64,000 nucleotides of DNA. Origin: a virus (lineage: Duplodnaviria > Caudoviricetes). Positions 12,628-63,848 of this stretch are shown in pieces (the first letter of the stretch is position 1; each line of letters starts with the position of its first letter). Position numbers and translations under genes: made by a program. Under the pieces are notes generated by a model. It made no database searches and was not told the origin of the DNA. It saw only the letters and a program-made list of their open reading frames with translations. The stretch is taken from positions 1 through 64,000 of IMG/VR virus record IMGVR_UViG_2870282538_000006; one strand, written 5' to 3'.

Positions 12628-12641
12628 GCCCCGGAGGGGGC
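12628..12641. repeat. dispersed hairpin motif copy 1
   Basis: GCCCC-GGAG-GGGGC, intergenic. Confidence 0.8.
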
Positions 12642-12650
12642 TTTGTTTTA

Positions 12651-13613
12651 TTACTTTTCTATTCGTAAGACATAATTAGCAAGATCATTAATCTCTTTAG
12701 TCATTTTGTTTCTAAAATCTTTTCTTCCTAGAGCCAATGATTGGTTTGGCTGATTTAGATAGTCATCAAGTGTTGAGATAGCTACCTGCTGCATGAACCT
12801 TACCCGTTTAGGATCAATTTCATACTGATCCTCTACCTGTTTAGCTTGATTCCTTGCGATTTCAACTTCCTCTTCTAACCGTTTAACTTTCTCTTCTAGC
12901 CGCGTTTTGTCGTCTATAAGAGCCAAGATAAGGTCTTTATTTTGTACAGTGGATAGCTGTTGAGATAAATCTTGCAGATAAAGAATATTTTGTTGAATAG
13001 TTTCATTCATGACAGCAAGTATTTCTTTATCTTCATGCTCCAGTAGCATATGGGCATCAGGAAGTTGATTTGAGGTTTTTAGAAATTGTTCAATTTTTTC
13101 ATCAAGTGTAAGCTCTTTGGTCTCTACTTCTAAAGATAAATCTTCAGTATTTTGTTGCTCTTCTTGATTCATTTCTGAATATCTGTCCACTTCTTGTTGA
13201 ACTTCTTCTTCTGGTTCCTCCTGAACCGAATCTTCTTCATTTATATTGGTGGCATCATCAATTTTGTCTTTAAGGCTTTCCAAAAAGTCACGATAGTTAT
13301 CAAAGCTTTTTGAGCTTTCTGAAGGTACTATCACTTGTGTTGGCTTTTCCTCTTGCTCTATATTGCTTTTTGGCTCACCAGGAAGTTTATATATTTTTCT
13401 ATTATACTTACCTCGTTTTGGTGAGACTTCTAATCTTCCCTCTTCTAAAAGCTTTGATAAGTGATAATCCATTGTTGGGCCTTGAATTCCAAATTTATTT
13501 GCAAGATCAGTAACAGAGATTTCAGCTTCTCTTTTGTCGCTTTCTTCTATCATCTTAACTACTTCTCTATAAACATCGTCCCGATTTATTTTTCTGTGCG
13601 GCATTGCAGACAT
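12651..13613 (-). CDS. winged-HTH plus coiled-coil protein
   Basis: N-terminal SVTDLANKFGIQGPTMDYHL HTH; acidic linker; heptad repeats. Confidence 0.7.
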   Translation of the reverse strand: MSAMPHRKINRDDVYREVVKMIEESDKREAEISVTDLANKFGIQGPTMDYHLSKLLEEGRLEVSPKRGKYNRKIYKLPGEPKSNIEQEEKPTQVIVPSESSKSFDNYRDFLESLKDKIDDATNINEEDSVQEEPEEEVQQEVDRYSEMNQEEQQNTEDLSLEVETKELTLDEKIEQFLKTSNQLPDAHMLLEHEDKEILAVMNETIQQNILYLQDLSQQLSTVQNKDLILALIDDKTRLEEKVKRLEEEVEIARNQAKQVEDQYEIDPKRVRFMQQVAISTLDDYLNQPNQSLALGRKDFRNKMTKEINDLANYVLRIEK

Positions 13614-13717
13614 ACATACATCTCCTTTAAGTGAAAGAATCCTTCTACATATATAATAACCTGAAAAGGCATTAAAAATGCAATAAAAATGATGAAATTC
13701 AAGAAATTAAAGCATTT

Positions 13718-15706
13718 TTAGGCGGTTATCATCTTAGATTCAATAATATCAGAAGGAATTTCTTCTAAAAAACGAGAAGGTTTATGAACTCTGCTTTTCC
13801 CATCTTGCTGGGTTCGTTGTTCAGCGAATGTAATAAACAGTTCTTTTTCGGCACGGGTGATCCCTACATACGCTAGTCTTCTTTCTTCTTCAAGATCTTT
13901 ATCGCTTTGACTTCTCCAAGAAGGAAACACTCCTTCATTCCATCCATTTAAGAAAACTACAGGGAATTCAAGCCCTTTAGATGCGTGAATTGTCATTAAT
14001 TTCACAGAGTCTGTTTTAACTTTATCTGTTGAATCTGTCACTAATGACACTTCTTGTAGGAAGTCTTCTAATGTTTTTTCTGGATTTTCTGTTTCGTATT
14101 TATCAACTAAGATCAAGAATTCCTTCAAGTTATCGATTTTTTCATCTGCTTTTTTGTCTTTTTCATAATGTGTCCATAAACCCGACTGTTCCATTACATA
14201 GCGAACATAAGTTGTAAGCATTAAACCTGAATCCAGTTTCTTTTGAAAATGATCAAGAAGATCAAAGAAAGCTGTAATCTTAGATGCGGATCTCTTATTA
14301 ATTGTATGGATATCGCTAACATTCTTAAGAGCCCGGTATATACTGACTTTATGAGTATTAGCGTATTCTTCGATTTTTTCTTGAGATGTCTTTCCAATCC
14401 CCCTTGTAGGCTTATTTATGACTCTGAGTAAAGCAGTATCATCCTTCCGATTGAATATGGCTCTTAAATAAGCAATTGTATCTTTGATTTCTTCACGATC
14501 ATAAAAAGAGTGGCCACCTACAATTGTATATGGAATAAACTGATTTCTAAAAAAGTCTTCAATGACACGAGACTGTGCATTGCCACGATATAAAATGGCA
14601 AAGTCTTCGTATTTGTAACCCTCTTGAATGACTTTTTTCTTTATGATGGCTGCAATATAGGCTGCCTCTTGATATTCGGTGGCTGTTCCAGTAACCTTAA
14701 TCATCTCACCATCCTGTTTGGTGGTCATAAGCGTTTTTTCTTTTTGATGCTTATTGAATTTAACAATTTCATTTCCAGCGTGTACAACGTTTCCTACAGA
14801 TCGATAATTCTGTTCAAGCTTTATTAAAGTGGCACTCGGAAAATACCTTTCAAAGTTCAATATAATACTGATATCAGAACCTCTGAATCCGTAGATAGCC
14901 TGATAATCATCCCCTACACAAAATAAGTTATAATGCGGAGCTGCCAGTAGGAGAAGCAGTTGAAATTGGGCATAGTTTGCGTCCTGGAACTCATCAGACA
15001 TAACAAAATGGAACTTGTTTTGCCAGTAATTCCGAGCTTCCTCATGATCTCTTAACACTAAAACAGTATTCATAATGAGATCTCCAAAATCCATCGCATT
15101 CATCTGCTGCATTTGGAATTGATATTTAGAATACACTTCTGACATTACTTGATCGCTAGGGCTTTCAGCAACATGATATGAGCAATATTCTGGGTCCCAT
15201 AAATTGTTTTTTGCTGTGTCTATGTAATGCATTGCGTAGCCTGCTTTGTAATTGTCCTGAATATTCATTTGCTTATAGATACGTTCAATAACCTGCAAAA
15301 CATCACCGGTATCATAAATGACGAACTTACATCGTTTAGATGTTTCATCCTGCTCGTATCCTAACAAGTGCCCATGTTTGCGAAGTATGCGTACACATAG
15401 GCTATGGAACGTGCCCATCCAAATATATTTCATTTGCTCTTCTCCAACAGCCTTTGCTAATCTTTCTTTCATTTCTTTGGCGGCTTTATTTGTAAAAGTC
15501 GCACAAAAAATACTTCCAGCATCTATTCCTTGGGACAGCATATTTGCAATCCTTGTTGTTAACGATTTTGTTTTTCCAGATCCAGCGCCAGCCAAAACTA
15601 ATGTTGGTCCATAGATTGTCGTTGCAGCTAATCGCTGTTGCTCATTTAATTCATTTAACATGCTTTCAATAGATGAAGAATTCAGTGGTTGTTGTGATGT
15701 AATCAT
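13718..15706 (-). CDS. pcrA: UvrD/PcrA ATP-dependent DNA helicase
   Basis: AGAGSGKT, DEFQD, GDDYQAIYGFRG, TIHASKGLEF, EERRLAYVGITRA. Confidence 0.92.
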   Translation of the reverse strand: MITSQQPLNSSSIESMLNELNEQQRLAATTIYGPTLVLAGAGSGKTKSLTTRIANMLSQGIDAGSIFCATFTNKAAKEMKERLAKAVGEEQMKYIWMGTFHSLCVRILRKHGHLLGYEQDETSKRCKFVIYDTGDVLQVIERIYKQMNIQDNYKAGYAMHYIDTAKNNLWDPEYCSYHVAESPSDQVMSEVYSKYQFQMQQMNAMDFGDLIMNTVLVLRDHEEARNYWQNKFHFVMSDEFQDANYAQFQLLLLLAAPHYNLFCVGDDYQAIYGFRGSDISIILNFERYFPSATLIKLEQNYRSVGNVVHAGNEIVKFNKHQKEKTLMTTKQDGEMIKVTGTATEYQEAAYIAAIIKKKVIQEGYKYEDFAILYRGNAQSRVIEDFFRNQFIPYTIVGGHSFYDREEIKDTIAYLRAIFNRKDDTALLRVINKPTRGIGKTSQEKIEEYANTHKVSIYRALKNVSDIHTINKRSASKITAFFDLLDHFQKKLDSGLMLTTYVRYVMEQSGLWTHYEKDKKADEKIDNLKEFLILVDKYETENPEKTLEDFLQEVSLVTDSTDKVKTDSVKLMTIHASKGLEFPVVFLNGWNEGVFPSWRSQSDKDLEEERRLAYVGITRAEKELFITFAEQRTQQDGKSRVHKPSRFLEEIPSDIIESKMITA

Positions 15707-15726
15707 CGTTTTATCCCCCTTTTAAT

Positions 15727-28961: not shown

Positions 28962-29777
28962 TTATTCTTTAGTTTTGCTCATAAATTTCTCTCTATTTTT
29001 ATATCGCAGAGAACACAACCTCCCACAGTAATCCTGATTATCAATTGTTTTGCCGCAGCATTTGCAATGACTCCCATCAGCACGTTGTTTATTGTATTCA
29101 TCTGCTGCAATGTACTTAAACGTCCCGCTTTTAATTGATTCAGGTCCAAAAATCACTCTTTGATTTGCTGAGCCAATGAACCATCCATCATGCATATATT
29201 GATCACTTGTAAGCCGTTTGTCTTGCTGATAATCTCCATCAACAATCATATCAATATGTTTCATGAGTTCAGTAACCTCTTCGGGAGTTAGAAGTGTAAA
29301 TATCACTTTTGAGGGATTATGATTCTCATCATATTCTAAAGTTAGTGAGTCACTAGCATAATCAATCAAATGATGATACATGGCGTCTCCATGTTTTTTT
29401 CGAATCCAAGTAAAATAAAGACCGTATTTCATCAGAGTATCTAACTTATATGCTGTATACATTACAAAATGAAAAGTGTGATCAATTTCTTTCAATTGCC
29501 TTGCCACTTGAGATAATGCTTTTGCTTGAAGTATCGGTTCACCTCCACAAAAAGTGACCTGTCGATTCCAGGCATCCCTATCACATATTTCAATCACTTC
29601 TTCAATAGTTAGATTGCGAGACAAACCTTCAAACGTCCATGTAGACTCATTAAAACAACCAAAACAAGGTGCAACTACTCCTCTAATGCAGCCTTTAGTA
29701 AAGAATTCTAGGCGTTTACCAGGACCAGCTGTAGTAGTATCTTTATTAACACCCATAAATCGAATTAAATTGGTCAT
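28962..29777 (-). CDS. radical SAM / NrdG-like 4Fe-4S protein
   Basis: GPGKR, C-x7-CxxC, GGEP, VDGDY, GSANQR. Confidence 0.8.
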   Translation of the reverse strand: MTNLIRFMGVNKDTTTAGPGKRLEFFTKGCIRGVVAPCFGCFNESTWTFEGLSRNLTIEEVIEICDRDAWNRQVTFCGGEPILQAKALSQVARQLKEIDHTFHFVMYTAYKLDTLMKYGLYFTWIRKKHGDAMYHHLIDYASDSLTLEYDENHNPSKVIFTLLTPEEVTELMKHIDMIVDGDYQQDKRLTSDQYMHDGWFIGSANQRVIFGPESIKSGTFKYIAADEYNKQRADGSHCKCCGKTIDNQDYCGRLCSLRYKNREKFMSKTKE

Positions 29778-29923
29778 GATACGAAAATTCCCCTTGATCG
29801 CAAGAGATACTGAATACCTTTTAATGCTTCATTAATGCACTCTTCATTAGGATTGTCGCTATGTAAGTATTCATTCAATTTATTATAAACTTCTTGCAAT
29901 TTTAAAATCTCTGTTCCTGTCAT
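29774..29923 (-). CDS. 49-aa protein (not in track)
   Basis: GAGGAG RBS; stop overlaps the next ATG. Confidence 0.55.
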   Translation of the reverse strand: MTGTEILKLQEVYNKLNEYLHSDNPNEECINEALKGIQYLLRSRGIFVS

Positions 29924-29943
29924 ATTAATCTCCTCTCAATGCA

Positions 29944-29957
29944 TGTAATGCATTTCA
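29944..29957. promoter_or_regulatory. operator palindrome variant TGTAATGCATTTCA
   Basis: One mismatch to consensus; upstream of operon. Confidence 0.55.
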
Positions 29958-30069
29958 ATATGTTTAGTATAAATGAAAACTTGGGGAAAAACAATAGAAA
30001 AACCACGAATAACATAGAAAAATGAAATTCGTGGCATTAAAACAAAGATAAAAAGAGGTATTTTAAAGA

Positions 30070-30270
30070 TTAATGCATTTCATGAAGACTCTTGTCTCTT
30101 GTTGTTTTTATTTCAATTTCATTGCTAATATCGAGAGAAAATTTTATTTGGCCGTACGCATATTGAATTTTGTTACTTCTTAGACCGTATTCAGCACGAG
30201 ATAAGCAATCTTCTAGCAACATCAAGAGCTGTTCTACTGGTAAAGCCTTTAAACTTTTGTCCATAAGCAC
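30070..30270 (-). CDS. hypothetical protein
   Basis: 66-aa ORF. Confidence 0.5.
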   Translation of the reverse strand: MLMDKSLKALPVEQLLMLLEDCLSRAEYGLRSNKIQYAYGQIKFSLDISNEIEIKTTRDKSLHEMH

Positions 30271-30281
30271 CCCTGACTACT

Positions 30282-30959
30282 CTACTTCATTGTTATAGAA
30301 AGAGTTTTCTTTTCTGGCTTGTATTGCATAAAATCAGGCAGTTCGCTGAAGAATTTTTCAGCCCATTCAGTTTCAACTTCAAGTTCAATTTCTTTTTTTC
30401 GTTTTTTTGAAAGAGGACCTTTACTTTTCTCCTCAATGATGATCCGTCTTTCAGCTTCTTTAGCAACAAGATTTTTAAAATCATTAGAATAAGCGTTTTG
30501 AAGTAACGTTGAATCAAGTGCAGGTTTTTTTAAATACTTTTCCAATTGATTGTGCTGCTTTAAGAAATCACGAGCTTTCTCTTCATCGATCACCACTGCT
30601 TTGGGCCCGGTTCTTTTCAGTGAAACGGTAGCCACATCTAATGAAAGTTTTTTACCGTTGTTTGCATCTTTAATATACTTTTCAATCAAGCCGTTAAGTC
30701 CGTCAATTTCTTCTTTTTTCTTTTGAATTTTTTGATCCCATTCGGCTTTAATCGCATCACGTAGCATTGTCAGCCTATCGATTTCTCTTTCAATGTATTT
30801 TCTGGCTAACACCATTTTCCGAACTTTTAGTTCATCGGTTGGCGTTGGAATGTATCCTTTCTCCCGTGTAAAGCTCTCCAACATTTCATTCATTAAATCT
30901 TCTATATTGATATCTTTTGCCTCTTCTTCTAGAGCTTCATAAAGTTTAGGATTAGTCAC
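30282..30959 (-). CDS. Gam/Gp157-like host-nuclease inhibitor candidate
   Basis: Helical coiled coil followed by KKLSLDVATVSLKR...IDEE. Confidence 0.55.
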   Translation of the reverse strand: MTNPKLYEALEEEAKDINIEDLMNEMLESFTREKGYIPTPTDELKVRKMVLARKYIEREIDRLTMLRDAIKAEWDQKIQKKKEEIDGLNGLIEKYIKDANNGKKLSLDVATVSLKRTGPKAVVIDEEKARDFLKQHNQLEKYLKKPALDSTLLQNAYSNDFKNLVAKEAERRIIIEEKSKGPLSKKRKKEIELEVETEWAEKFFSELPDFMQYKPEKKTLSITMK

Positions 30960-30984
30960 ATCAATTCCTCCTTAATCATTTAAT

Positions 30985-45415: not shown

Positions 45416-45495
45416 TTCAGGTCCTCCAATAGCTCGGGATTTCGATAAATGTCTCCGTTTTTTGTATGTAAAACTTCTTCACTCCAGATTAATCG

Positions 45496-45687
45496 CTAAA
45501 GTTCTCCACCCATATCGTGTACATACCAATATAAAAAGGCTTTTGCAGTCTCACCGTATTTAGCCCCTGTGTTTAAGTATGTAACCATATAAGATGTTAT
45601 CTCTTCTATTTTATCTTCTGGTAAACCACTCTCTTGTACAGCTTGCTTAATTGCTTCAGTTATAAATCCAGATTCCTGTTCCTTCAC
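45496..45687 (-). CDS. hypothetical protein (GTG start MKEQE)
   Basis: AGGAGG RBS, GTGA coupling. Confidence 0.55.
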   Translation of the reverse strand: MKEQESGFITEAIKQAVQESGLPEDKIEEITSYMVTYLNTGAKYGETAKAFLYWYVHDMGGEL

Positions 45688-46079: not shown

Positions 46080-46111
46080 TGCGAACCTCCTATATAGTGT
46101 TCAACTCAAAA

Positions 46112-46164
46112 TGTAATGCATTTCGTAACATCTGATCATTTATAAGAATACGTAATGCATTACA
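46112..46164. promoter_or_regulatory. two operator palindromes
   Basis: TGTAATGCATTTCG at 46112; GTAATGCATTACA at 46152. Confidence 0.65.
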
Positions 46165-46240
46165 ATAAATCAAGAGAAAAATAAAAAAAGCTTCTAGTTC
46201 CTCAAAAATCCTTGAGATTTTAACTAAAAGCTTTTAATGA

Positions 46241-46996
46241 TTAAATTTCTTTTATGTCAATAATGTCCTCAGGAAAAGCAATAACTTCTTGCTCCTTATT
46301 ATTGATGAATGCTTTTATTTTATCTTTGTGTATCCTTCCTTGATATACGATACCATTTGAACTGAAGCGGCCGGCAAAAAAATCTGCTATATCTTTAGAT
46401 AGAGTCCAAGAAAAAGCTTCGTTAACAGGAGTTGACTCAGGTGTTGCCCCTCTGTAGATAACATAGTAGCCATCTTTAGGCTTCTGTGGTGCGTTAGAAA
46501 TGTCATAAGATTCATCTTTGGAACCATCGATAACCTCTCTAACTAGAGCAGCGTCATAACCGCTCTCGCTTTTCACATAGATCTCCAAAAAAGTGTTAGC
46601 TCTTTCTTCCTCTGGAATCATTGAACTTATCTTTTTATAAACATGGAAGAGAACCTTTTTATCTGTGTACCTTAAGACATCCTCCCACTTTTCAGATTCG
46701 TAAGCAGCTTGTACGAATGACAGCCGTACCTTAAAGCGATCCGCCTCAGAAAAGTCTCCCAATTTAGTTTCTAGAAAGGTTGTATCCAAGCTCATAAAAG
46801 GTTGATAGAACAAACCATCCCAATAGCAATAGCGATTAATAAGCCCTTCAGGATCATAAAATAAATGTTTTGGGCTTATTTCTAGAATCTCACAGATTGA
46901 TACATACTTCGATTCCGTCTCTGCCTCCTCAATAGGGATTAATTTATTCTCATCAAGAGCAAAGTGTTCACCTTTAAAAATCTCAGAAATGTTCAT
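46241..46996 (-). CDS. putative R-S-E clade ADP-ribosyltransferase-fold protein
   Basis: IYRG...FSWT...EQEVI. Confidence 0.55.
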   Translation of the reverse strand: MNISEIFKGEHFALDENKLIPIEEAETESKYVSICEILEISPKHLFYDPEGLINRYCYWDGLFYQPFMSLDTTFLETKLGDFSEADRFKVRLSFVQAAYESEKWEDVLRYTDKKVLFHVYKKISSMIPEEERANTFLEIYVKSESGYDAALVREVIDGSKDESYDISNAPQKPKDGYYVIYRGATPESTPVNEAFSWTLSKDIADFFAGRFSSNGIVYQGRIHKDKIKAFINNKEQEVIAFPEDIIDIKEI

Positions 46997-47247
46997 TACA
47001 CCCTTCCTTTCTGGATAAAGCTCCTTATATATAAATACTCTCCTGGTATTCGATTTATTAAAACTTAATGGTCAATTGATCGTCAAAATATCCGTGTCCG
47101 TTGTTCCCCTTCTTTACCGATACTTCTTGAATCAGTATGAATATTATAAACTAATCCAGGTGTAGTACGGGCTATATTGTTATTCATAATCGGAATAATG
47201 TTTCTACCTCTCATAGACAATCGTCTCCTATATAATGCGTTAGAGTT

Positions 47248-47478
47248 TTACCATTCCAATGCCTTAAGTTGTTTAAAAGATAAAGATAAAATATGGCCAG
47301 TTCGTTCATTCCTTATAACATAGGATTCTTCTGCTGATTCAATGAGTCTATCTTGGCCAATATTGTTTGGTGACTTCTTGATTTTTAACACTATTATCTT
47401 ATCTCCTTGTCTAATCGCTCCTTTTGTGTGCATGTCTGCAACAGGATTTTTAGCTATAAAACAATAACCTTGTTTCAT
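47248..47478 (-). CDS. hypothetical protein
   Basis: GGAGG RBS. Confidence 0.55.
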   Translation of the reverse strand: MKQGYCFIAKNPVADMHTKGAIRQGDKIIVLKIKKSPNNIGQDRLIESAEESYVIRNERTGHILSLSFKQLKALEW

Positions 47479-47481
47479 GTA

Positions 47482-47763
47482 TTACCCTCCAAATTTTATA
47501 GTCAACAAGTCATTGAGTTGATCTCTCGTTTTCCTAAAAAGTTTAATTTCCTCTCCTGTAGCTTCACGTTGAATTGAATCTGCGACCCAATCGGTCAAAT
47601 ACAGTTCTTGTACTTCCTCATTGTTGATCCGTAGTGTTTGTGTTCTAACTATTGAATCGGTCATATATGGGCTATTTGGTATCACCTTAATAATGTGCTT
47701 TTCTATGCCTCTATCTTTATTGGTGTATTCATGTGCATAATATTGTCCTACTTCGATTCTCAT
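47482..47763 (-). CDS. hypothetical protein
   Basis: AAGGAG RBS; REAT.EEI motif. Confidence 0.6.
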   Translation of the reverse strand: MRIEVGQYYAHEYTNKDRGIEKHIIKVIPNSPYMTDSIVRTQTLRINNEEVQELYLTDWVADSIQREATGEEIKLFRKTRDQLNDLLTIKFGG

Positions 47764-47883
47764 TGTTTATCATCTCCTTTCTCACTCTCTCCATTCTTTT
47801 ATGTTATTGCAACCTCCCCTAGAAGGGAAACGCTCTGGGCTTAATGCCTGTTTATAGTCGCCCAGACGACTAATGAAACATCA

Positions 47884-47915
47884 AAAAGGAGTATCAAGTC
47901 CTTTAATACTCCTTT
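47884..47915 (-). terminator. intrinsic terminator
   Basis: AAAGGAGTAT/ATACTCCTTT stem plus U tract. Confidence 0.65.
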
Positions 47916-47929
47916 CGTATAGAGAGTGT

Positions 47930-48469
47930 TTATAGAGTGTTCCAGTTAAATTTCTTCAAGACATCCTTAATCGGAAATTCCTTTTTCTTGTTTCCGGTTC
48001 GTATAATCTCAATTGAATGATTCCTGATATGAAAATCTCCCTTATATGTAAAAGAAGTTGATGGCAATTTCATGTAACGTTTAACATCCACACCTAATTG
48101 TAAGTCTCTATTAATAGAGGCACTATGAAACAAATCAAAAGACTCTTGTACGGTTAGATTTTCATAAGACCTACTGGTGTCTAGTTGCAGATTGATGTTG
48201 GGATTGGTTTCGTCCCAATCAGGATGCAGCTCACTTTCACTAATATCTATTTCGAAAACATAATAATATGGGGATTCTTTATCTTCCACGATAGTTGTGA
48301 GGTTGCCAAAATAAGCAGCAACTGAAAACATATTTGATACATATGTATAACCATCTGTCGTTTTCATTTCCTCTATCAGATGATGAACTCTGTCAATTTC
48401 GTGCTTAATCGTTTTGTCTTCAAGTATTTTTTTGGCCCTGTGTTCTGATGTTCCATGATAGACTATCAT
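47930..48469 (-). CDS. putative H-Y clade ADP-ribosyltransferase-fold protein
   Basis: VYHGTS...YTYVS...AAYF. Confidence 0.5.
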   Translation of the reverse strand: MIVYHGTSEHRAKKILEDKTIKHEIDRVHHLIEEMKTTDGYTYVSNMFSVAAYFGNLTTIVEDKESPYYYVFEIDISESELHPDWDETNPNINLQLDTSRSYENLTVQESFDLFHSASINRDLQLGVDVKRYMKLPSTSFTYKGDFHIRNHSIEIIRTGNKKKEFPIKDVLKKFNWNTL

Positions 48470-48482
48470 TGTTCGTCTCCTT

Positions 48483-49004
48483 TTACTCGCTTGGTACTTC
48501 CTGAAGATCTTTTTTTAATTCAATGGCTGATGAATTAAGAGATTGCAAAGATGATGTTATATCGTCCCGAGCGCTTGATTTTGATTTATCAAATGCCTCT
48601 GGTAACTTATCATATATGTTTTGAAAGTCAGAAACCATCGAATCATAATCATTACAAACTTCCGTAAATCGATCAGAAGGACACGTCAAAGTTTCACTTG
48701 TTTTAATAATAGCGAAAATTGTAATAACAGTATCCTGCTTTGTTTTTTCGATCTCTTCACTACTACCTTTGGGATCATCTAAAATAACTAAGCCATCCAG
48801 GGCAGTTCCCATACTTTCAGTTAGTTGTTTGATACTTTCTCTGTAAACCTTTTCTTCTTTGTTTAAAGCCTGTTGTGTGTTTTCTTCTGTGCTTTCAATT
48901 TCTTGATCATCTGACGATTGACTGTCTTTACTTGTTTGGCTACATGCTGCTAAAGTGAGTAGACATGTTAATAGAATAAGGCAACTAAAGTGATGTCTTT
49001 TCAA
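48483..49004 (-). CDS. lipoprotein
   Basis: Signal peptide with LAAC lipobox. Confidence 0.75.
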   Translation of the reverse strand: MKRHHFSCLILLTCLLTLAACSQTSKDSQSSDDQEIESTEENTQQALNKEEKVYRESIKQLTESMGTALDGLVILDDPKGSSEEIEKTKQDTVITIFAIIKTSETLTCPSDRFTEVCNDYDSMVSDFQNIYDKLPEAFDKSKSSARDDITSSLQSLNSSAIELKKDLQEVPSE

Positions 49005-49027
49005 GTTTGTTCTCCTCTTCCAGTTTG

Positions 49028-49249
49028 TTATTTGACTGGAAACAGATAGCTAACATATATATCAATATCGCCGTCTTTATATACAGCAATCTTTTCATTA
49101 TCCTGTTCAATCTTTTGGATAAGATCTTTAGCATCTTTGTTCTTCCTTGGTGTGTTTGCTGCTACAATCCAAGTCCAGTCATTCCATTTATCGACACAAT
49201 CTCTGATCTTTTTAGGGATTTCATGGCCGGTCGTATACACTCTGATCAT
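49028..49249 (-). CDS. hypothetical protein
   Basis: ORF in operon. Confidence 0.5.
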   Translation of the reverse strand: MIRVYTTGHEIPKKIRDCVDKWNDWTWIVAANTPRKNKDAKDLIQKIEQDNEKIAVYKDGDIDIYVSYLFPVK

Positions 49250-49297
49250 CTGTTATTCACCATCCTTCAATGTGTGATATGAAAGAGCAATACGGTT

Positions 49298-49495
49298 CTA
49301 ACTTTTAAGTTTAGCCAAGTTGCTATAAACTTCCTCAATCTCATTATCATACAACTGAAGTTCTTTAGTCACTTTGCCTTCGACTTCAACTTTAAAGTCA
49401 ATTTTGATCTCGTTATTTTCATCAGGGGTATTTATCCTGTAGTATATGGATGCACCATCATCATGGTTGAACTTAATCCACCTATTCTCGTTCAT
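49298..49495 (-). CDS. hypothetical protein
   Basis: AGGAG RBS. Confidence 0.55.
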   Translation of the reverse strand: MNENRWIKFNHDDGASIYYRINTPDENNEIKIDFKVEVEGKVTKELQLYDNEIEEVYSNLAKLKS

Positions 49496-49781
49496 GACTG
49501 CCGTCTCCTTCCTCTTTTAATGCGTGTTCAATTTGATCAGCACTAAAAATCCTGAAGCTATGATCGGCTTCACCTCTAGATAACTTTCCATTGTTTAATA
49601 CTCTTCTACACCAATATAAATCTGAATTTTTATGTCTGTTTTCTATTTCCCATGTTCCGATATTAACTTTAGGCAGCCCCTTATATATTGAAAACTGTTG
49701 GCCAACACTATAAGTAGCTGTTGTCTTTTGCACATTCAATGTTGTATACCCAATAGATCGATAATATTCTTTTGAAGCCAA
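49482..49781 (-). CDS. hypothetical protein
   Basis: GGAGG RBS, TTG start. Confidence 0.55.
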   Translation of the reverse strand: MASKEYYRSIGYTTLNVQKTTATYSVGQQFSIYKGLPKVNIGTWEIENRHKNSDLYWCRRVLNNGKLSRGEADHSFRIFSADQIEHALKEEGDGSHERE

Positions 49782-54794: not shown

Positions 54795-55131
54795 AGAAAG
54801 CAACAGTTGAATATACTAATAAAGGGAATGTTGAGGTGGGAAAGGTGCCCCACACGCTACATCTTGATGTAGTTACCAGAGATCCTGGGTACGCCGACCA
54901 GGCAACATTCCGGCTAAAGAGAAGTTCCTGACAATGTTAGGAGCTTTTTTAACTGTTGTAGCAGTCGAGTTAGAAGTACGAAGTGACTCTCAAGGGGCTG
55001 ACTCAAAGCAAATAAGGTTTTCCCTTTGAACTTTTGAAGGGTTCAAGAATAGAGCACGGCAATTGCCTCGAGGGTATTTTATTTTTTAATTAAGATGGCT
55101 GTCATTCTTAGACAGCCATCTTAATTATTTT
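54795..55131 (+). ncRNA. unidentified structured non-coding RNA
   Basis: Promoter, nested stems with G-U pairs on the plus strand, terminator, no RBS-led ORF. Confidence 0.6.
55087..55131. terminator. bidirectional terminator
   Basis: 17-bp stem TAATTAAGATGGCTGTC/GACAGCCATCTTAATTA between convergent units. Confidence 0.75.
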
Positions 55132-56523: not shown

Positions 56524-56572
56524 ATTAATTCCCTCCTGGATTTTCTTTAACAATGCAATTTGTCATCTAAAT

Positions 56573-56586
56573 GCCCCGGATGGGGC
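56573..56586. repeat. dispersed hairpin motif copy 5
   Basis: GCCCC-GGAT-GGGGC. Confidence 0.8.
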
Positions 56587-56695: not shown

Positions 56696-56726
56696 AAAAA
56701 AATAAAAAAGGCACCATTTGGTGCCC
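56696..56726 (-). terminator. intrinsic terminator
   Basis: GGCACC-AAAT-GGTGCC plus long U tract. Confidence 0.75.
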
Positions 56727-56832
56727 CCTACCCAAAATCAAAGGAGTGGATTGCTAATCAGACAACCCGGACTGCTACAGAATACGGGTTCTATAGCAGA
56801 TATGCGTCTGATCATGGTCCATCTGTGATGCA

Positions 56833-58457: not shown

Positions 58458-59168
58458 ATGCCGGAAGAAAAATTTTGGAAGATAACAGATTTCGCCCAGA
58501 AAATATCTAAAGACATGCAGCTTAAGCTGAATGATTCCAAAGGAGTTCATTACAACACGGTTGATAAATGGTTTAAAAAACTCGAAAGTTCAGGAATTCA
58601 CTATGTGAATAGAGTTGCCGGAGAAAAAGTATATGATGAGCTAGACTTGAAAATAGGGCACATCATATTTGAAAGACGACGTGCTAATTGGAGTTTAGAT
58701 GCTATATTTGAAGCTCTTCCTCAAGTTGTTGAATTACGTCCAATGAATCACGAGGAGACAAGTGATTCATCACAAGTGATGGATGAGACACAAATGATGG
58801 AGAAATTCAGAAGAGAATTCGGAGCTGAATTTATTAAGCTGAGAGAAAACATTCTGGAAGAGGCGAGAACATTTATTGAAAATGAAACCCAAAAAATTAA
58901 AAATCAATTGCCACCTCCAGAAAACAAAGAAGAGAAGAAAAGGGCAAAGAGAGATGATTTTGTCACTAATATGAGGCTGAGTATGCAACTTGATAAAGAA
59001 GCTGCTGAGGCTTGGAGTAAGCAGCCAGAATCAGTCAGAATGAAAAAAGTAGGCTGGTTCAGAAAAGAAGAAGATTTAGTTGCCAGAGAACAGTTTATTC
59101 GTGACTACAAAATATCTAATATGTCTCGTATTGCAAAAGAGGCTTACGAAGACGACAACAACTCGTGA
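58458..59168 (+). CDS. MerR-like HTH plus coiled-coil protein (RacA/TubY-like architecture)
   Basis: N-terminal KITDFA...YNTVDKWFKKLE...KVYDELDL; C-terminal coil ending KVGWF. Confidence 0.7.
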   Translation: MPEEKFWKITDFAQKISKDMQLKLNDSKGVHYNTVDKWFKKLESSGIHYVNRVAGEKVYDELDLKIGHIIFERRRANWSLDAIFEALPQVVELRPMNHEETSDSSQVMDETQMMEKFRREFGAEFIKLRENILEEARTFIENETQKIKNQLPPPENKEEKKRAKRDDFVTNMRLSMQLDKEAAEAWSKQPESVRMKKVGWFRKEEDLVAREQFIRDYKISNMSRIAKEAYEDDNNS

Positions 59169-59182
59169 TTCGTACATAAGTC

Positions 59183-59212
59183 AAAAAAGCTCGCAGAAAT
59201 GTGGGCTTTTTT
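59183..59212. terminator. intrinsic terminator
   Basis: AAAAAAGCTCGCA-GAAA-TGTGGGCTTTTTT. Confidence 0.75.
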
Positions 59213-59237
59213 GATGCTTAAAAACAGGTCTATTTAA

Positions 59238-59255
59238 AACCCCCGGATGGGGGTT
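59238..59255. repeat. dispersed hairpin motif copy 6
   Basis: AACCCCC-GGAT-GGGGGTT (compensatory stem change). Confidence 0.8.
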
Positions 59256-59333
59256 CATTAACGAGCAATTTTGTGTTTCAAATTAATGCTTCGAAAATCA
59301 GCACATTTTGTGCGTCAAAATTGGCCATTTTTA

Positions 59334-59362
59334 TTGACCTAGGAGAGAAAGTTTTTTATGAT
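59334..59362 (+). promoter_or_regulatory. sigma-A promoter of TA pair
   Basis: TTGACC-17-TATGAT. Confidence 0.6.
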
Positions 59363-59442
59363 TGATCTAACAACATGTATACGGAACAGAGGAAATGCCA
59401 TATGCTATACCATCTAAGTGTTTTTAAGGTGGTGATAGCATC

Positions 59443-59619
59443 ATGTCTGAAAGGGAAAAGGGGAATGAGAACATGAATGCTCCAGTTCTTGAATCATCCA
59501 AAGAACGAATTCAACGTCTACTTGCCACAGGAGCTGTTCGGGGATTTAGAAGTGATGATGACGGCAAAATTTTAATTAATCCTAACGATCCAAAAGAAAA
59601 AGAATGGATGGAAGATTAA
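59443..59619 (+). CDS. putative antitoxin (58 aa, or 48 aa from 59473; not in track)
   Basis: RBS present; stop 1 nt before the toxin start; acidic C-terminus. Confidence 0.6.
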   Translation: MSEREKGNENMNAPVLESSKERIQRLLATGAVRGFRSDDDGKILINPNDPKEKEWMED

Positions 59620-59620
59620 T

Positions 59621-59965
59621 TTGCCGCCAAAACCAGGAGAAATCTACGAAGCGTTTTTTCAATATGATGACGGGACCGGTGGAAAATACCGGCCCGTTCT
59701 TGTTGTGGAAACAGATAGCGGACTTTTTGTTGCCGTCGCTATAAAAGTCACTACATCTGAACCAAAAAAAGGTTATACACATCACATACATACAAGCAGA
59801 ATTGAGATAAAAGATTGGAAAGCAGCAGGCTTAAGAGATCCATCTTGGGCTCAATGCAGTACATTCGAAGTATTCAAATTCGTGCAATTGAAAAAATACA
59901 TAGGCAGACTTACTTCTGATGATTTTCAAAACATATATGAAGAATATCTGAAGTATACTTCTTAA
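59621..59965 (+). CDS. PemK/MazF-family toxin
   Basis: GEIY, KYRPVLVV, VTT, GLRDPSW, IGRL. Confidence 0.82.
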   Translation: MPPKPGEIYEAFFQYDDGTGGKYRPVLVVETDSGLFVAVAIKVTTSEPKKGYTHHIHTSRIEIKDWKAAGLRDPSWAQCSTFEVFKFVQLKKYIGRLTSDDFQNIYEEYLKYTS

Positions 59966-60339
59966 AGAGTAGCCGAAGGCTGCTTTTAATTTTGCTTAGA
60001 CAATAACATAACAACAAGGTGAGTAATTGGTTTTCTGGCAATGTTCATAAGCTTCCAGTTTAGTATATTCATTATGATGTTAAAGAACTTATTTACTTGG
60101 ATATTCGTTGGACTGATTATTTGGAATAAGAAGATATTCATGGTATCTAGGATTAAAAGAGGCTACAAGCCTCTTTTTTTGCGAAAAAATGACATTTATG
60201 TTGAATGATGTATTTTTATGTGTTAATTTGAATAAGAAAGGAGGGTTGGAAGATAAATACTTTTGATTCTATCTAAAATTCGGATCATTTGCATCAAGAC
60301 AAGTCACCCAGTTTAAAACAAACTTGAAAGGGTGTAAAT

Positions 60340-61074
60340 ATGAAAAAAATAGTTTTGTCATTGATCGCATCTGGTTTTTTGGTGTCTGGAATTCTTCCTT
60401 CGAGCTTAGAGAGCGCTAGAGCGGAGTCAAAGATTGATCAGCAAAATGTCGACTCTGATATCAAAGACGTTGTCTTTATTGAACAAAGCGATGGAAAGCT
60501 TGAATACACATACACCAAAGGGAATGAGAAATTTAAGAATGTTGAATACTTCAACGAGGACCAGACTGGTTTGAGAAGTCACATCTATAAGTTAGATAAG
60601 AATACTGGCGAATATCAAAAAATTGATGAGCTGGTAAGTCAGTTGTCTTTTGATAAAAAAGAAGTCTCTATTGAGTCGCTAGTGACGAAGGAGAAAGATG
60701 TAATGGTAATACAATCAAACCAGAACACTGCGTCACTCGACGAGCTTGAGTTTTCAATTCAAGCAAAGGATAAATGGACATACCACGGAACTGTTTACGG
60801 AGACAATAAGCCTAAAAAGTGGACCATCGGCGTTATCGGAATTTCAGTTGCAGGGATTACAAAATTGCCCGCAGTAGCAAAGATTGTTATCAATATAGCA
60901 AACATGACTTATCAATTGGCAACCGACGTATTTTATTATAAACAGGTGTTGTATAAAAAAGGGCCAAAATTAAGACCTTCATTTAAATATGTGACGACAT
61001 TCTATTCTGATAAGGCAAGAAAGAAAGTCATCAAAAAGAACGTTGTCAGCTACGCCAACTCAGGCTATCGTTAA
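60340..61074 (+). CDS. secreted protein, possible bacteriocin/toxin precursor
   Basis: Sec signal peptide; acidic pro-region; cationic C-terminal domain with hydrophobic helix. Confidence 0.6.
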   Translation: MKKIVLSLIASGFLVSGILPSSLESARAESKIDQQNVDSDIKDVVFIEQSDGKLEYTYTKGNEKFKNVEYFNEDQTGLRSHIYKLDKNTGEYQKIDELVSQLSFDKKEVSIESLVTKEKDVMVIQSNQNTASLDELEFSIQAKDKWTYHGTVYGDNKPKKWTIGVIGISVAGITKLPAVAKIVINIANMTYQLATDVFYYKQVLYKKGPKLRPSFKYVTTFYSDKARKKVIKKNVVSYANSGYR

Positions 61075-62135: not shown

Positions 62136-62996
62136 CTATGCTGCCTGTCCCCTGTATTCCAGTGGGGACAGGTAGTTTAATTTTGCCTGAATTCGTACAT
62201 GATTATATCGATACATGTATTGATTTACAATTTGTACTACTTTAGAATTGGATATAGATGCTCTACTTTGAGCGTTAAATCCTTCCGACTTTAGCGAGGA
62301 GTGAAAGGATTCAATGACGGCATTATCATGGCAGTTTCCTTTTCGAGACATGCTTGTGGTAATGCCTTTTTCTTTGGCCAAATTCTGATATGCATGTGAA
62401 GTATAGACAGATCCCTGGTCGCTATGAAGAAGTAACCCTACTGGTTTACGTAATTCTACAGCTTCCCTCAATGTGTCTAATACTAGGTTAATATCTTGGC
62501 TCGTACCTATTTTGTAAGCCACTATTTCGTTGTTATATAAGTCCATAATCGTTGATAAATATAACATAGTCGAGCCATAAGGTAAGTAGGTAATGTCGGT
62601 TACCCATTTTTCATTTAATCGGCTTGCTTTAAAATTACGATTGAGAGTGTTCGGCACAATAATATTACTCTCACCACAAATGTACTTTTGTCGCTTCTTC
62701 TTAACTTGACACTGAATCTCAAACTTTTGCATAATTTTTTGTACAGTTTTGCGGTTTACATTTATCCCATACTTTCTGTTTAAGATGGATTTAATTTTAC
62801 GATGACCATAGTGATAGAAGTTTTTCTTACACAGCTTGATTACTAGCTCTTCTAATGAAGTTAGCTCAACTTTTTTATACTTCTTTTTCCAACGGTAATA
62901 TGTTGACTTAGGTATGCCTAATACTCCAAGAATATCAATTATTTTAAAAGTGGCTGAGAGTTCTTCTACAACTTGGACAATGACTCGTGGCTCCAA
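62136..62996 (-). CDS. IS3 transposase OrfB (DDE)
   Basis: WVTDITY, HSDQGS, DNAVIESF; fused to OrfA via A_AAA_AAG at 63017-63023. Confidence 0.92.
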   Translation of the reverse strand: MEPRVIVQVVEELSATFKIIDILGVLGIPKSTYYRWKKKYKKVELTSLEELVIKLCKKNFYHYGHRKIKSILNRKYGINVNRKTVQKIMQKFEIQCQVKKKRQKYICGESNIIVPNTLNRNFKASRLNEKWVTDITYLPYGSTMLYLSTIMDLYNNEIVAYKIGTSQDINLVLDTLREAVELRKPVGLLLHSDQGSVYTSHAYQNLAKEKGITTSMSRKGNCHDNAVIESFHSSLKSEGFNAQSRASISNSKVVQIVNQYMYRYNHVRIQAKLNYLSPLEYRGQAA

Positions 62997-63298
62997 CTCC
63001 TTTCGATCTCCTGGTACTTTTTTATAATTGCCAATTGAGCCTCTAGCTGTTTATTCTTTAGTTTTAATTCTTCTAGCTCACTCATTTCCTCCGATTCTTT
63101 ACCGTAGGAATATTGTTTTCCAACTTGTTGCGAAAATCGATAGGTTTGGCCTGTTTTGTACCATCGCATCCATGTTTTAATTTGAGTCTTATTTTTTATC
63201 CCCAGTTGTTCCATTATTTCTTTGTTTGTCATTCCAGCTTGTTTCATTTTAATTACTTCCCATTTTACTTCTTCTGCGTAATGTACTCTTGTGCCCAT
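62966..63298 (-). CDS. IS3 transposase OrfA (HTH)
   Basis: HTH plus leucine zipper. Confidence 0.88.
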   Translation of the reverse strand: MGTRVHYAEEVKWEVIKMKQAGMTNKEIMEQLGIKNKTQIKTWMRWYKTGQTYRFSQQVGKQYSYGKESEEMSELEELKLKNKQLEAQLAIIKKYQEIERSWSHESLSKL

Positions 63299-63387
63299 AG
63301 AAAAACACCCTCCTAAGAATCATATTGTATTAATACGATTCAGGGGGTGTTTTTTCCTTGTCTCATTTATTTGGGTCTCTCCAGCTG

Positions 63388-63798
63388 TTATTTCTGCGCT
63401 TTTAAGTTTGAGATAAGATCACCGAAATATTCAGGAAGGTTAATTCCATTGATAGCTGGATTAGGAACTTTCTCAAACCCATTCTTAATAGCAAAAGAAT
63501 AAGCTTCTTCAGTCTGAACGCTCTCAATCATAATGGCTTCATAGCCATTCTTTTCAGCATAATCCTTCAAGTAGGAGAGAAGCTTAGTACCGTAGCCTTT
63601 TCTTTTGTTTTTAAATTCAATCCTGGCAATCACTAATTTCTTCTCAAAAGTATTGAGTCTCAACATCAACTCATTGTGGGCTCCTTCAATAAAAAGCCTA
63701 TTCATACTTATGTATGATGAAACTTCTTCACCGGAATCCTCTTTAAATAGATCGATGATCTCTTTGAACTCCTCTATATCCACTTTTGTACTAGTCAT
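63388..63798 (-). CDS. GNAT N-acetyltransferase
   Basis: KRKGYGT, FAIKNGF; GGAGG RBS. Confidence 0.75.
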   Translation of the reverse strand: MTSTKVDIEEFKEIIDLFKEDSGEEVSSYISMNRLFIEGAHNELMLRLNTFEKKLVIARIEFKNKRKGYGTKLLSYLKDYAEKNGYEAIMIESVQTEEAYSFAIKNGFEKVPNPAINGINLPEYFGDLISNLKAQK

Positions 63799-63834
63799 GA
63801 TATGTCCTCCAATCATAAATTGACTCACGAAAAC

Positions 63835-63848
63835 GCCCCGGATGGGGC
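63835..63848. repeat. dispersed hairpin motif copy 7
   Basis: GCCCC-GGAT-GGGGC. Confidence 0.8.

Follow-up and report, generated by a model that had tools for sequence, protein, structure and literature searches.

The virion RNA polymerase of phage N4 is described, in the part of the source drawn on here, as reading a hairpin in the template strand that contains a sheared G:A pair, with transcription starting 8 nt past the stem (PMC4496689). DNA loops of the G-N-(N)-A class closed by a C:G pair are reported to form unusually stable mini-hairpins (PMC13037366, excerpt). For YonO of SPbeta, which transcribes late structural genes, the available section of the report explicitly calls the promoter unknown and gives one mapped start, downstream of yonO in the same orientation and before a non-coding RNA (PMC5467207). 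[quoted passage not shown]

The window analysed here, 64 kb of a 93-kb record, is the replication module of a ~205-212-kb phage-plasmid of the Bacillus licheniformis group. Immediately upstream of the module, and in the same orientation, is a gene for a YonO-like single-chain RNA polymerase (1281 aa, with a PF05183 two-barrel polymerase domain; record positions 64595-68440, minus strand), which heads a co-directional array of 52 kb. In the window's family a GC-rich non-coding stretch comes right after the polymerase gene. The replication proteins encoded by the element include a DnaG-like primase, an SSB and several helicases. Sigma-70 region 2 was not found in three records, the window lineage included. 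The other dispersed motif, a 14-bp palindrome with 62 matches at up to 2 mismatches, stands behind ordinary TG-extended -10 boxes and therefore belongs to host-type promoters; together, these two results leave a hairpin with its downstream box as the only orphan signal for the element's polymerase.

The hairpin motif, CCCCGGAKGGGG, occurs in seven exact copies in the window, at 12629, 30987, 39149, 42479, 56574, 59241 and 63836, against a chance expectation of 0 (no match in 100 dinucleotide-preserving shuffles). The strand count over the 64 kb is seven on the plus strand and none on the minus strand, and no copy falls inside an open reading frame of at least 70 aa on either strand. The original prediction, which was made from the window alone and had missed the YonO-like polymerase gene nearby, the downstream box and the relatives, was therefore right in calling seven intergenic copies in one orientation; its coordinates took in a flanking base and lay 1-2 nt too far to the left. 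The remaining 29 kb of the record contained no exact copy, and a single copy with one mismatch at record position 64352. Nearly all C4-N3-6-G4 matches in the 93-kb record are the hairpin motif; an unrelated palindromic C4-N4-G4 was seen once, at window position 62084. A complete 212-kb sister plasmid contained no further full copies beyond a 52-kb stretch, where all copies sit in one gene array, and the polarity switch that had been envisaged was not seen in it. The genes flanking six of the seven copies are on the minus strand, so that the loop in the mRNA sense reads A/C-U-C-C. We considered a CsrA/Rsm binding hairpin because the sister plasmid encodes CsrA, with its gene adjoining that for flagellin. 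This candidate was rejected, as GGA is present on the plus strand only, antisense to six of the seven neighbouring genes, and the mRNA loop is UCC.

The compensatory outer pairs that had been noted were recovered: five copies have G-C as the fifth pair, and copy 6 has C-G there. In copy 2 this pair is mismatched in the common register, but a 5-bp stem forms in a shifted register, and the stem extends to 8 bp in copy 1 and to 7 bp in copy 6. Folded as RNA, the window copies give values from -10.6 to -13.5 kcal/mol. On the template strand the loop is GGAT in five copies and GGAG in two, and GGAG can slip to a GGA triloop.

Copy 1 (12625-12644, read on the minus strand like the six others) has an 8-bp stem and the mRNA loop CUCC, GGAG on the plus strand, with a fold of -12.8 kcal/mol. 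It begins 6-10 nt past the stop codon of a 320-aa HTH/replication-initiator-like gene and about 30 nt ahead of the primase start at 12595. The TGA box that accompanies most other copies is missing from it and present in its B. halotolerans orthologue, and the B. thuringiensis plasmid also has a hairpin at the orthologous place before the primase gene. Copy 2 (30976-30998), with a C4/G4 stem and loop CUCC or, in the other register, C5-UCC-G5 (-11.6 kcal/mol), begins 8 nt past the stop of a 132-aa gene; its TGA lies 8 nt past the stem, with an SD sequence 3-4 nt further on, ahead of a 225-aa gene. Copy 3 (39141-39161) pairs GCCCC with GGGGC in a 5-bp stem round the loop AUCC, and its TGA is just 4 nt past the stem. 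It is found within a 245-nt gap ahead of an SSB-like gene (38397-39104; SSB family match), about 15 nt after a conserved TG-extended -10-like site; the upstream stretch is kept in the B. halotolerans plasmid, and the B. thuringiensis plasmid, too, has a hairpin ahead of its SSB orthologue.

The loop AUCC is shared by the four remaining copies, and copies 4, 5 and 7 each have a 5-bp stem with TGA 7 nt past it. Copy 4 (42468-42491) begins 14 nt past the stop of a 69-aa ORF (42505-42714) and precedes a 138-aa gene and a Pif1-like helicase. The orthologous 69-aa ORF of the B. thuringiensis plasmid is also directly followed by a hairpin and box, and the B. paralicheniformis plasmid shows one unpaired stem change in this copy. 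Copy 5 (56563-56586) follows a canonical long-stem terminator (56706-56729) at a distance of about 120 nt and lies ahead of genes of 94 and 327 aa; in P. rhizovicinus the orthologue of the 94-aa gene has a hairpin and box 27 nt upstream. Copy 6 (59238-59255) has a 7-bp stem, followed by a short T run and TAGA in place of TGA, and the most stable fold (-13.5 kcal/mol). It had been singled out as lying outside any obvious transcript, and it does sit amid plus-strand genes, about 30 nt before a bidirectional terminator and with no minus-strand gene behind it; its flanks are conserved in the B. halotolerans plasmid. Copy 7 (63825-63848) comes after a TG-extended -10-like site and a palindrome of 8 bp (63849-63867), and a GNAT-like gene follows it.

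The window motif is one lineage's form of a two-part signal that stands before the replication genes of large Bacillus phage-plasmids throughout the family. Its layout is a hairpin of 4-8 bp closed by C-G, a lineage-specific loop of 3-4 nt, a T-rich spacer of 7-10 nt and a TGA box. The box was found 5-12 nt past the stem in 31 of 46 family hairpins; for the other hairpins of these genomes the corresponding count is 629 of 4404 (Fisher p = 6e-16). An SD sequence and start codon follow within 150 nt at 42 of 45 family sites (median 38 nt), and many sites begin 0-10 nt past a stop codon. Hairpins with the lineage loop favour the strand of the polymerase gene in all six genomes, with sense/antisense counts of 7/0, 7/1, 13/1, 9/1, 5/3 and 5/0. 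They begin just after the polymerase gene and span about 50 kb in the window lineage, the B. thuringiensis plasmid and the P. rhizovicinus record, and are more scattered round the genome in two metagenomic records.

Across these relatives the stems covary while the loop and closing C-G stay fixed. All 55 cells were paired in the B. thuringiensis plasmid, with 15 double changes, as were 162 of 165 in the set with 4-nt loops, with 53 double changes; the fifth pair, on which no selection was made, is formed at 41 of 44 sites. The loop, which the original prediction took to be conserved, is conserved within each lineage and differs between lineages. On the template strand the relatives carry GGA, GACA, GATA, GAAA, GTTA and GTAA, all of the form G-N-(N)-A and closed by C:G. 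In the B. thuringiensis box two letters, G and T, never vary, and another four columns reach at least 90% conservation; between lineages the box sequences diverge strongly. One B. thuringiensis copy begins 8 nt after a canonical terminator, and in some relatives a host-type -10 box with the palindrome lies 1-7 nt upstream of the hairpin. Stems in the relatives can be weak (5 bp with only three G-C pairs), and the T run begins several nt past the stem.

We hypothesise that the hairpin and box form a template-strand hairpin promoter read by the element's own YonO-like RNA polymerase, a plausible reading that we favour over the others but put forward tentatively. The template strand, which is the plus strand of the window, would extrude a compact GC hairpin in negatively supercoiled or locally single-stranded DNA. 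The polymerase, by itself or assisted by a factor such as the element's SSB, would recognise the loop, G-G-A(-T/G) here and G-N-(N)-A in relatives, together with the closing C:G pair. The T-rich spacer would then serve as a ruler, placing the RNA start at the purine of the T-G-A box, so that about 5-40 nt of leader would come ahead of the ribosome-binding sites of the primase, SSB, helicase and other replication genes. Support for this comes from the B. thuringiensis copy, copy 5 and copy 6, which an upstream transcript would hardly reach, and from the coupling of the TGA box at a fixed distance to lineage loops on the polymerase-gene strand. The G-N-(N)-A loops of the template strand strengthen a reading at the DNA level; the U-N-N-C loops of the sense strand belong, to our knowledge, to no known stable RNA class.

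Other features speak against a promoter. The signal is confined to the replication module and absent from structural genes, whereas the SPbeta enzyme transcribes late structural genes, and the GGAT loop ends in T, breaking the G...A rule in five of the seven window copies. With -10-like sites before copies 3 and 7 and in relatives, the hairpins could simply be part of the 5' leaders of transcripts made by the host polymerase. The box behind the stem is similar to the rrn boxA-like element of Bacillus, the sites 0-10 nt past stop codons would also suit intercistronic RNA elements, and the window hairpins are fairly stable as RNA.

The main rival of the promoter is an RNA site for processive antitermination of the nut or rrn type, which we consider somewhat unlikely. 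The hairpin would be a boxB-like handle bound by an element-encoded N-like protein, explaining the lineage-specific loops, and the box a boxA-like site for host NusB/S10, so that the modified host RNA polymerase would read through terminators scattered in the 50-kb array. The order of a small hairpin and a U-rich box ending in UGAA matches the B. subtilis rrn leaders, and the B. thuringiensis box agrees in part with the rrn boxA-like consensus, as judged by eye and with a one-base difference in length (PMC13753749, in part). The sites keep strictly to the mRNA sense, several of them stand a short way past host-type -10 boxes, and canonical terminators are present in the array. The lambda and rrn operons have one or two antitermination sites each, whereas here there are 7-13 in an array of 50 kb, many abutting the previous stop and standing directly before single genes. 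The site 8 nt after a terminator would give no help in passing that terminator, and copy 6, among genes of the opposite strand, has no minus-strand gene upstream. A NusG paralogue (PF02357) was not found in five genomes by a search whose controls worked, and no N-like protein was identified among proteins other than small basic ones. The boxes vary between lineages, and a U-rich box is easy to find in AT-rich DNA. The boxB/nut-like site of the original prediction survives in this modified form, helped by the likeness of the downstream box to the rrn element. We judge it unlikely that the signal is instead an intercistronic RNA element for processing, stability or translation, which as a cleavage mark or a protection of 5' or 3' ends would set the ratios of the replication proteins. 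The position between cistrons and the stable RNA hairpins are consistent with this, and the conserved loop and box would suit a sequence-specific RNA-binding protein or nuclease. The only RNA runs found gave low-depth assembled contigs; one of these crosses copy 3 unbroken and therefore represents read-through RNA or contaminating DNA there. No candidate nuclease or RNA-binding protein was found, however, and stems of 4-6 bp are too short for RNase III. An intercistronic element would also leave unexplained why the opposite strand shows the G...A regularity and why the sites keep to the array that follows the polymerase gene, and it would not account for copy 6.

We rank ordinary terminators, priming sites and a repressor operator below a promoter or an antitermination site. 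Weak intrinsic terminators or attenuators partitioning the array appear improbable. In their favour, every copy combines a GC hairpin with a T-rich stretch behind it, often right after a stop codon, and copies 1 and 6, with stems of 7-8 bp and a T run, look terminator-like. A terminator scan nevertheless picked up only copy 1, and on the opposite, plus strand. To that extent the statement that most copies lack a U tract stands; on visual reading, a T run of at least 3 nt lies within 8 nt of the stem in five of the seven. Terminators need neither a conserved loop nor a fixed TGA, the relatives combine weak stems with displaced T runs, and canonical long-stem terminators serve elsewhere in the genome, three times beside hairpins of the signal. 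The lineage loops, covarying stems, fixed-distance box and separate terminators bear out the original view of a sequence-specific recognition hairpin. That prediction had also offered a single-stranded DNA hairpin for priming or loading. A template-strand hairpin with a trinucleotide at a fixed distance is the logic of primase recognition sites too, and the element encodes a primase, an SSB and several helicases; we nonetheless find it quite improbable that the copies are initiation sites used by the DnaG-like primase or by a helicase loader, as in G4-type origins. A role at the DNA level survives in modified form and gains from the G-N-(N)-A loops, whereas general priming or loading is weakened because the copies occupy only 52 of 212 kb without a polarity switch and, in all lineages, stand tightly before ribosome-binding sites and starts. 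With the plus strand as lagging-strand template, replication would moreover run head-on through the whole array. An operator bound as double-stranded DNA by a master repressor, as SPBRE is by MrpR in SPbeta, has its precedent in the ten or so dispersed 15-bp copies (PMC10516654, in part) and is very improbable here. Covarying stems are incompatible with a duplex binder that reads bases, the k-mers shared upstream of the ten MrpR-bound SPbeta genes are AT-rich and do not resemble the hairpin, and the one C4-N3-6-G4 present in SPbeta stands in other surroundings. A far better operator candidate is the 14-bp palindrome that follows -10 boxes.

Set beside the known systems, the signal is, like SPBRE, an intergenic repeat scattered through the early region of a large temperate Bacillus element (PMC10516654). 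SPBRE is, however, an AT-rich duplex site without hairpin logic, and a conserved 15-bp duplex site at early promoters is not what the hairpin motif presents; the SPBRE analogue here is likely the palindrome. With the rrn leader hairpin and boxA-like element, and with lambda nut, it shares a hairpin followed by a U-rich box with a UGAA-like end, in the mRNA sense of long transcription units (PMC13753749, in part). It differs in having far more copies, placed gene by gene and sometimes behind terminators, and in a box whose length and letters vary by lineage. Like the YonO promoter of SPbeta, which stands ahead of a non-coding stretch (PMC5467207), the array lies downstream of the polymerase gene and in the same orientation, and in this family too a non-coding stretch follows that gene; the SPbeta case is a single mapped start, for the late structural operon. 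In SPBc2, positions 60540-60563 hold a 5-bp hairpin with loop TTCC and a TGA nearby, and any link of it to the YonO start would be tentative.

The early promoters of N4 offer a functional parallel. They too are short GC-rich inverted repeats in which loop and closing bases are conserved and outer stem bases are free, with stems of 5-7 bp and loops of 3 nt in N4 against 4-8 bp and 3-4 nt here. A spacer that is T-rich on the non-template strand leads to a purine about 8-10 nt past the stem (PMC4496689, in part), the start in N4 and the predicted start here. The N4 template loop is G-purine-A closed by C:G. Here the loop G-(A/G)-A is exact in the B. thuringiensis relative, as a GGA triloop, and takes the form G-N-N-A in three other lineages; the window loop has 4 nt and ends in T or G. 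N4 has three copies, and the polymerase that uses them is a T7-like enzyme that is injected from the virion and works with host SSB and gyrase. This family has 7-13 copies, and the one polymerase found in it belongs to the unrelated two-barrel YonO type. T7-like polymerase (PF00940) gave no match in three records, in a search to which the control genomes were silent too. The likeness would thus be functional only, and we describe the hairpin and box as possibly working like N4 promoters, not as members of the N4 family. It is conceivable, if still more doubtful than the promoter reading itself, that they represent the first recognisable promoter class of YonO-type single-chain two-barrel RNA polymerases, made of extruded template-strand DNA mini-hairpins with a G-N-(N)-A loop and a purine start at a fixed distance. 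In a widespread family of Bacillales phage-plasmids of ~200 kb, the replication module would be driven from such promoters, and the solution would be convergent with that of the unrelated N4 virion polymerase.

Genes in the window code for a DnaG-like primase, helicases (UvrD-like and Pif1-like), RecA and a pol III beta clamp, together with an SSB-like protein, an HTH/replication-initiator-like protein, RNase H, ThyX, an AAA ATPase and two ATPases of the SNF2 type; the window also has a PemK/MazF pair and an IS3 element. Just past the window, on the minus strand (record positions 64595-68440), lies the gene for a 1281-aa polymerase with a PF05183 two-barrel 'RdRP' domain. Relatives of this protein carry the database label 'RNA dependent RNA polymerase', and the enzyme is of the YonO type (PMC7824862 and the available text of PMC5467207). 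Beyond the polymerase gene the plus strand carries genes for an Alp7A/ParM-like actin, a terminase and a capsid protein. Homologues of the polymerase on circular plasmids of 200-212 kb from Bacillus licheniformis, B. paralicheniformis and B. halotolerans match it at 94.7-99.9% identity; the figure is 34% for the homologue on a B. thuringiensis plasmid of 260 kb and 29-30% for those on Paenibacillus plasmids. Relatives at 60-71% identity were recovered as protein sequences only. The presence of these homologues on large plasmids, together with the terminase, capsid and actin genes, identifies the element as a large phage-plasmid, of which the window is the replication module.

Several other features of this region were observed. 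A plus-strand block at 58458-61074 encodes a 236-aa protein, a 244-aa protein that looks secreted, and a PemK/MazF toxin paired with a 58-aa partner; this block and an IS3-family element at 62136-63298 (minus strand) break the otherwise one-directional gene array, and the GC skew flips there. A Pistol self-cleaving ribozyme lies at 47808-47871 on the minus strand (75.4 bits against a gathering score of 34.5) and a Skipping-rope RNA motif at 54826-54910 on the plus strand (67.4 bits against 36.7), opposite to the gene array and adjoining a 17-bp bidirectional terminator at 55087-55127. On the plasmid NZ_CP035189, just to the left of the window, a CsrA (carbon storage regulator) gene is directly followed by a flagellin (hag) gene (117700-118872, plus strand); an LXG toxin/immunity pair and a protein with a DnaA N-terminal domain are encoded nearby.

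The original prediction of seven hairpins in one orientation, with compensatory outer pairs, was borne out. All seven matches to CCCCGGAKGGGG in the window, at 12629, 30987, 39149, 42479, 56574, 59241 and 63836 (copies 1 to 7), lie on the plus strand, and the motif was matched in 0 of 100 dinucleotide-preserving shuffles. The window makes up the initial 64 kb of an IMG/VR 'provirus' record of 93 kb, the remainder of which has no further exact copies; position 64352 of the record holds a single copy with one mismatch, and a palindromic C4-N4-G4 at 62084 is unrelated. Genes on the minus strand surround six of the seven copies, so that in the sense of the mRNA the motif reads (G)CCCC-(A/C)UCC-GGGG(C). 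In five copies the fifth stem pair is G-C and in copy 6 it is C-G; in copy 2 it is mismatched in the standard register and pairs in a shifted one; the stem reaches 8 bp in copy 1 and 7 bp in copy 6. Calculated folding energies range from -10.6 to -13.5 kcal/mol for the copies as RNA and from -5.5 to -9.0 kcal/mol as template-strand DNA. A TGA follows at 7-8 nt in copies 2, 4, 5 and 7 and 4 nt from the stem in copy 3; TAGA takes its place in copy 6, and copy 1 lacks the TGA that its B. halotolerans orthologue has. No Rfam family was found at the hairpin sites. In the B. paralicheniformis plasmid NZ_AP025341 (151498-151509) the stem of copy 4 carries one pair-breaking change and no compensating change.

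The 212-kb sister plasmid, whose polymerase is 99.9% identical, carries seven copies and a degenerate eighth, all on one strand, within 52 kb and on the side towards which the polymerase gene is transcribed; the distribution is the same in the plasmids of B. paralicheniformis and B. halotolerans. We also searched for relatives more widely. A peptide scan with the Pif1-like helicase found no close relatives in viral contigs, and a genome-contig match at 22% identity was rejected as unrelated. Exact 14-mer scanning of viral contigs gave 118 matches, mostly single and unrelated, none of them like the record by blastn. The phage collection returned only a 212-bp match to the YopX region in a DNA search, matches of at most 29% identity to the primase and no match to the polymerase. 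Phage 0305phi8-36 is said to carry a YonO-like enzyme (PMC7824862) and gave no match to the polymerase profile built here, and a metagenome scan with the polymerase alignment recovered, short local matches aside, only relatives of at most 29% identity.

Within the family the hairpin is one form of a two-part signal, the hairpin-box, in which a hairpin with a C-G closing pair is followed by a T-rich spacer, a TGA box and then an SD and start codon. A rule-based scan required a stem of at least 4 bp, the closing C-G and the lineage's own loop, and demanded nothing downstream. It gave 7 sense and 0 antisense hairpins in the B. licheniformis plasmid, 7 and 1 in B. halotolerans, 13 and 1 in B. thuringiensis, 9 and 1 in the Paenibacillus rhizovicinus record, and 5 and 3 and 5 and 0 in the metagenomic records G003 and G002, respectively. 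Every B. thuringiensis copy has a UCC loop on a stem that varies between copies, and the Paenibacillus-type records have UGUC/UAUC, UAUC/UUUC or UAAC/UUAC loops on 5-6-bp stems of unrelated sequence. The loop is conserved within each lineage and the stems covary in the relatives, which supports the core of the original prediction. In the B. thuringiensis set 55 of 55 cells are paired, with 15 double changes, and in the 4-nt-loop set 162 of 165, with 53; the inner four pairs are forced by the selection rule and among them only the variety of the stems is independent evidence. The fifth pair, which the scan did not demand, is formed in 41 of 44 sites.

A TGA lies 5-12 nt past the stem in 31 of 46 family hairpins, not all of them independent given the common ancestry of the window lineage and the B. 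halotolerans plasmid, against 629 of 4404 other hairpins in the same genomes (Fisher p = 6e-16). The B. thuringiensis box is an 11-nt, nearly invariant sequence of the T-G-T-n-T-n-T-G-A-A-T type; other lineages have a different sequence and keep the T-rich run followed by TGA. An SD-like motif and start codon lie within 150 nt in 42 of 45 sites, the median distance from the stem being 38 nt, and many sites start 0-10 nt past the stop codon of the preceding gene. The window lineage and B. thuringiensis share sites ahead of the genes for primase, SSB and the Pif1 helicase and behind a 69-aa ORF, and the window lineage and P. rhizovicinus share one before a 94-aa gene. Intergenic flanks of these positionally orthologous sites cannot be aligned. 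Such positional orthology across lineages indicates that the signal is old and under selection. It is a real and conserved feature, specific to this family of phage-plasmids. We found no published description of it: full-text searching on YonO promoters and hairpins gave only the 2017 characterisation paper, in which the promoter is left open, and a jumbo-phage review.

The element also carries a 14-bp palindrome of the TGTAATGCATTACA type, which has 62 matches in the 212-kb sister plasmid NZ_CP035189 when up to 2 mismatches are allowed; window positions include 9386, 29944, 35598, 35660, 40750, 46112 and 46151. In most cases a TG-extended -10 box precedes it by 3-10 nt and the SD follows directly, in the structural as well as the replication module, and the palindrome occurs too in B. 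thuringiensis and P. rhizovicinus, which are distant relatives. By analogy with SPBRE, the operator of the SPbeta repressor MrpR (available text of PMC10516654), this palindrome, and not the hairpin, looks like the master-repressor operator. A separate, perfect 8-bp palindrome with a 3-nt centre at 63849-63867, directly 5' of copy 7 and just past a TG-extended -10-like site, keeps its arms in three plasmids while the centre varies, and is probably a separate operator.

What, then, does the hairpin-box do? A duplex operator seems very improbable, as the stems covary, the TGTAATGCATTACA palindrome is a far better operator candidate, and the k-mers common upstream of ten MrpR-bound SPbeta genes are AT-rich, unlike the hairpin motif; identity with SPBRE itself was ruled out, the two being unrelated. 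The original prediction had looked to a polarity switch at the origin, but all copies on the sister plasmid lie on one strand and its other 160 kb has neither copies nor a switch, which counts against a general replication-fork or packaging signal; we give little credence to the hairpins being priming sites. A role as weak terminators is improbable too. A terminator scan flagged only copy 1, on the opposite strand, the relatives' stems are weak with displaced T runs, and canonical terminators with long stems occur separately in the genome at 38372-38396, 56706-56729 and 55087-55127. Three hairpins adjoin such terminators: copy 5, copy 6 and one in B. thuringiensis, the last of which starts 8 nt after its terminator. 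The hairpins are probably not ordinary terminators. Two protein-site ideas were also rejected. The GGA loop is on the non-coding strand, the wrong one for a CsrA site, even though the sister plasmid encodes CsrA. MspI cuts CCGG, which the window motif contains and the relatives' hairpins do not; a sub-threshold MspI match in the 225-aa protein after copy 2 (30282-30959, minus strand; E = 0.0033, 17.4 against a cut-off of 25.6 bits) is probably a coincidence.

An RNA-level site for nut/boxA- or rrn-like antitermination is one of two serious readings, although we consider it unlikely. According to the available text of a 2026 study (PMC13753749), B. subtilis rrn leaders start with a small hairpin and, directly after it, a boxA-like NusB-binding sequence, and by eye the B. 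thuringiensis box matches this consensus bar one base of length; some hairpins also lie just behind host-type -10 boxes and the 14-bp palindrome. Against this stand the high number of sites and their placement gene by gene, the position of some behind terminators, copy 6, and our failure to find a NusG paralogue in five genomes. If the sites are nut-like, a multi-copy antitermination system of the Nus type would be described for the first time in a mobile element of Bacillus. Some other intercistronic RNA role is slightly less likely. Three RNA runs, as assembled contigs, have low, flat depth over 29501-49500 and are uninformative on starts and stops; one contig spans copy 3. Under either the promoter or the antitermination reading the signal can be used to annotate the early/replication regulon of these large phage-plasmids.

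Our tentative preference, held at somewhat less than even confidence, is that the hairpin-box is a template-strand hairpin promoter for the element's YonO-like polymerase. YonO-type enzymes are minimal relatives of cellular RNA polymerases, and two-barrel polymerases favour a pyrimidine at -1 and a purine at +1, with which the T preceding G or A in the box agrees. No sigma factor was found in the element, though the polymerase is present, and its other promoters look host-type. The hairpin-box array starts directly behind the polymerase gene; in SPbeta the sole mapped YonO start (position 2225998 of NC_000964) is likewise downstream of yonO, before a non-coding RNA (available text of PMC5467207). 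SPbeta (NC_001884) has no C4-N4-G4 hairpins; within the non-coding interval of the mapped start, about 270 nt past yonN, is a 5-bp hairpin with a TTCC loop and a TGA after 4 nt (60540-60563, minus strand). In our record a GC-rich non-coding stretch between the polymerase stop and copy 7 (63850-64595) contains the degenerate eighth copy, and relatives have small ACCC-UUC-GGGU-type hairpins in the same place; by analogy with the unannotated non-coding RNA after yonO/yonN in SPbeta, it may be a structured RNA. How YonO-type polymerases locate genes is an open question in the available text of the 2017 characterisation paper, which left the promoter sequence and any need for a helper factor to be determined (PMC5467207). 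Each genome of the family supplies 5-13 aligned candidates, whose stems covary naturally, whose loops are particular to the lineage and whose downstream box is fixed, and the question thereby becomes directly testable.

On the template strand the loops of the relatives read GGA, GACA, GATA, GAAA, GTTA and GTAA, closed by C:G, with the end letters fixed and the middle free; in the window five copies read GGAT and two GGAG. The promoters of the N4 virion polymerase are template-strand hairpins whose loop consists of G, G/A and A and contains a sheared G:A pair; that polymerase reads the loop and closing bases, and an A-rich template spacer acts as a ruler to a start 8 nt past the stem (available text of PMC4496689). 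DNA mini-hairpins of this loop geometry are described as unusually stable in the available text of PMC13037366. The relatives' loops have this geometry on the same strand, and the sites may work like N4 promoters, but we do not count them in the N4 promoter family, as the polymerase here is of another type, being YonO-like. If they are promoters, recognition of DNA-hairpin promoters would have arisen twice, in unrelated polymerase families.
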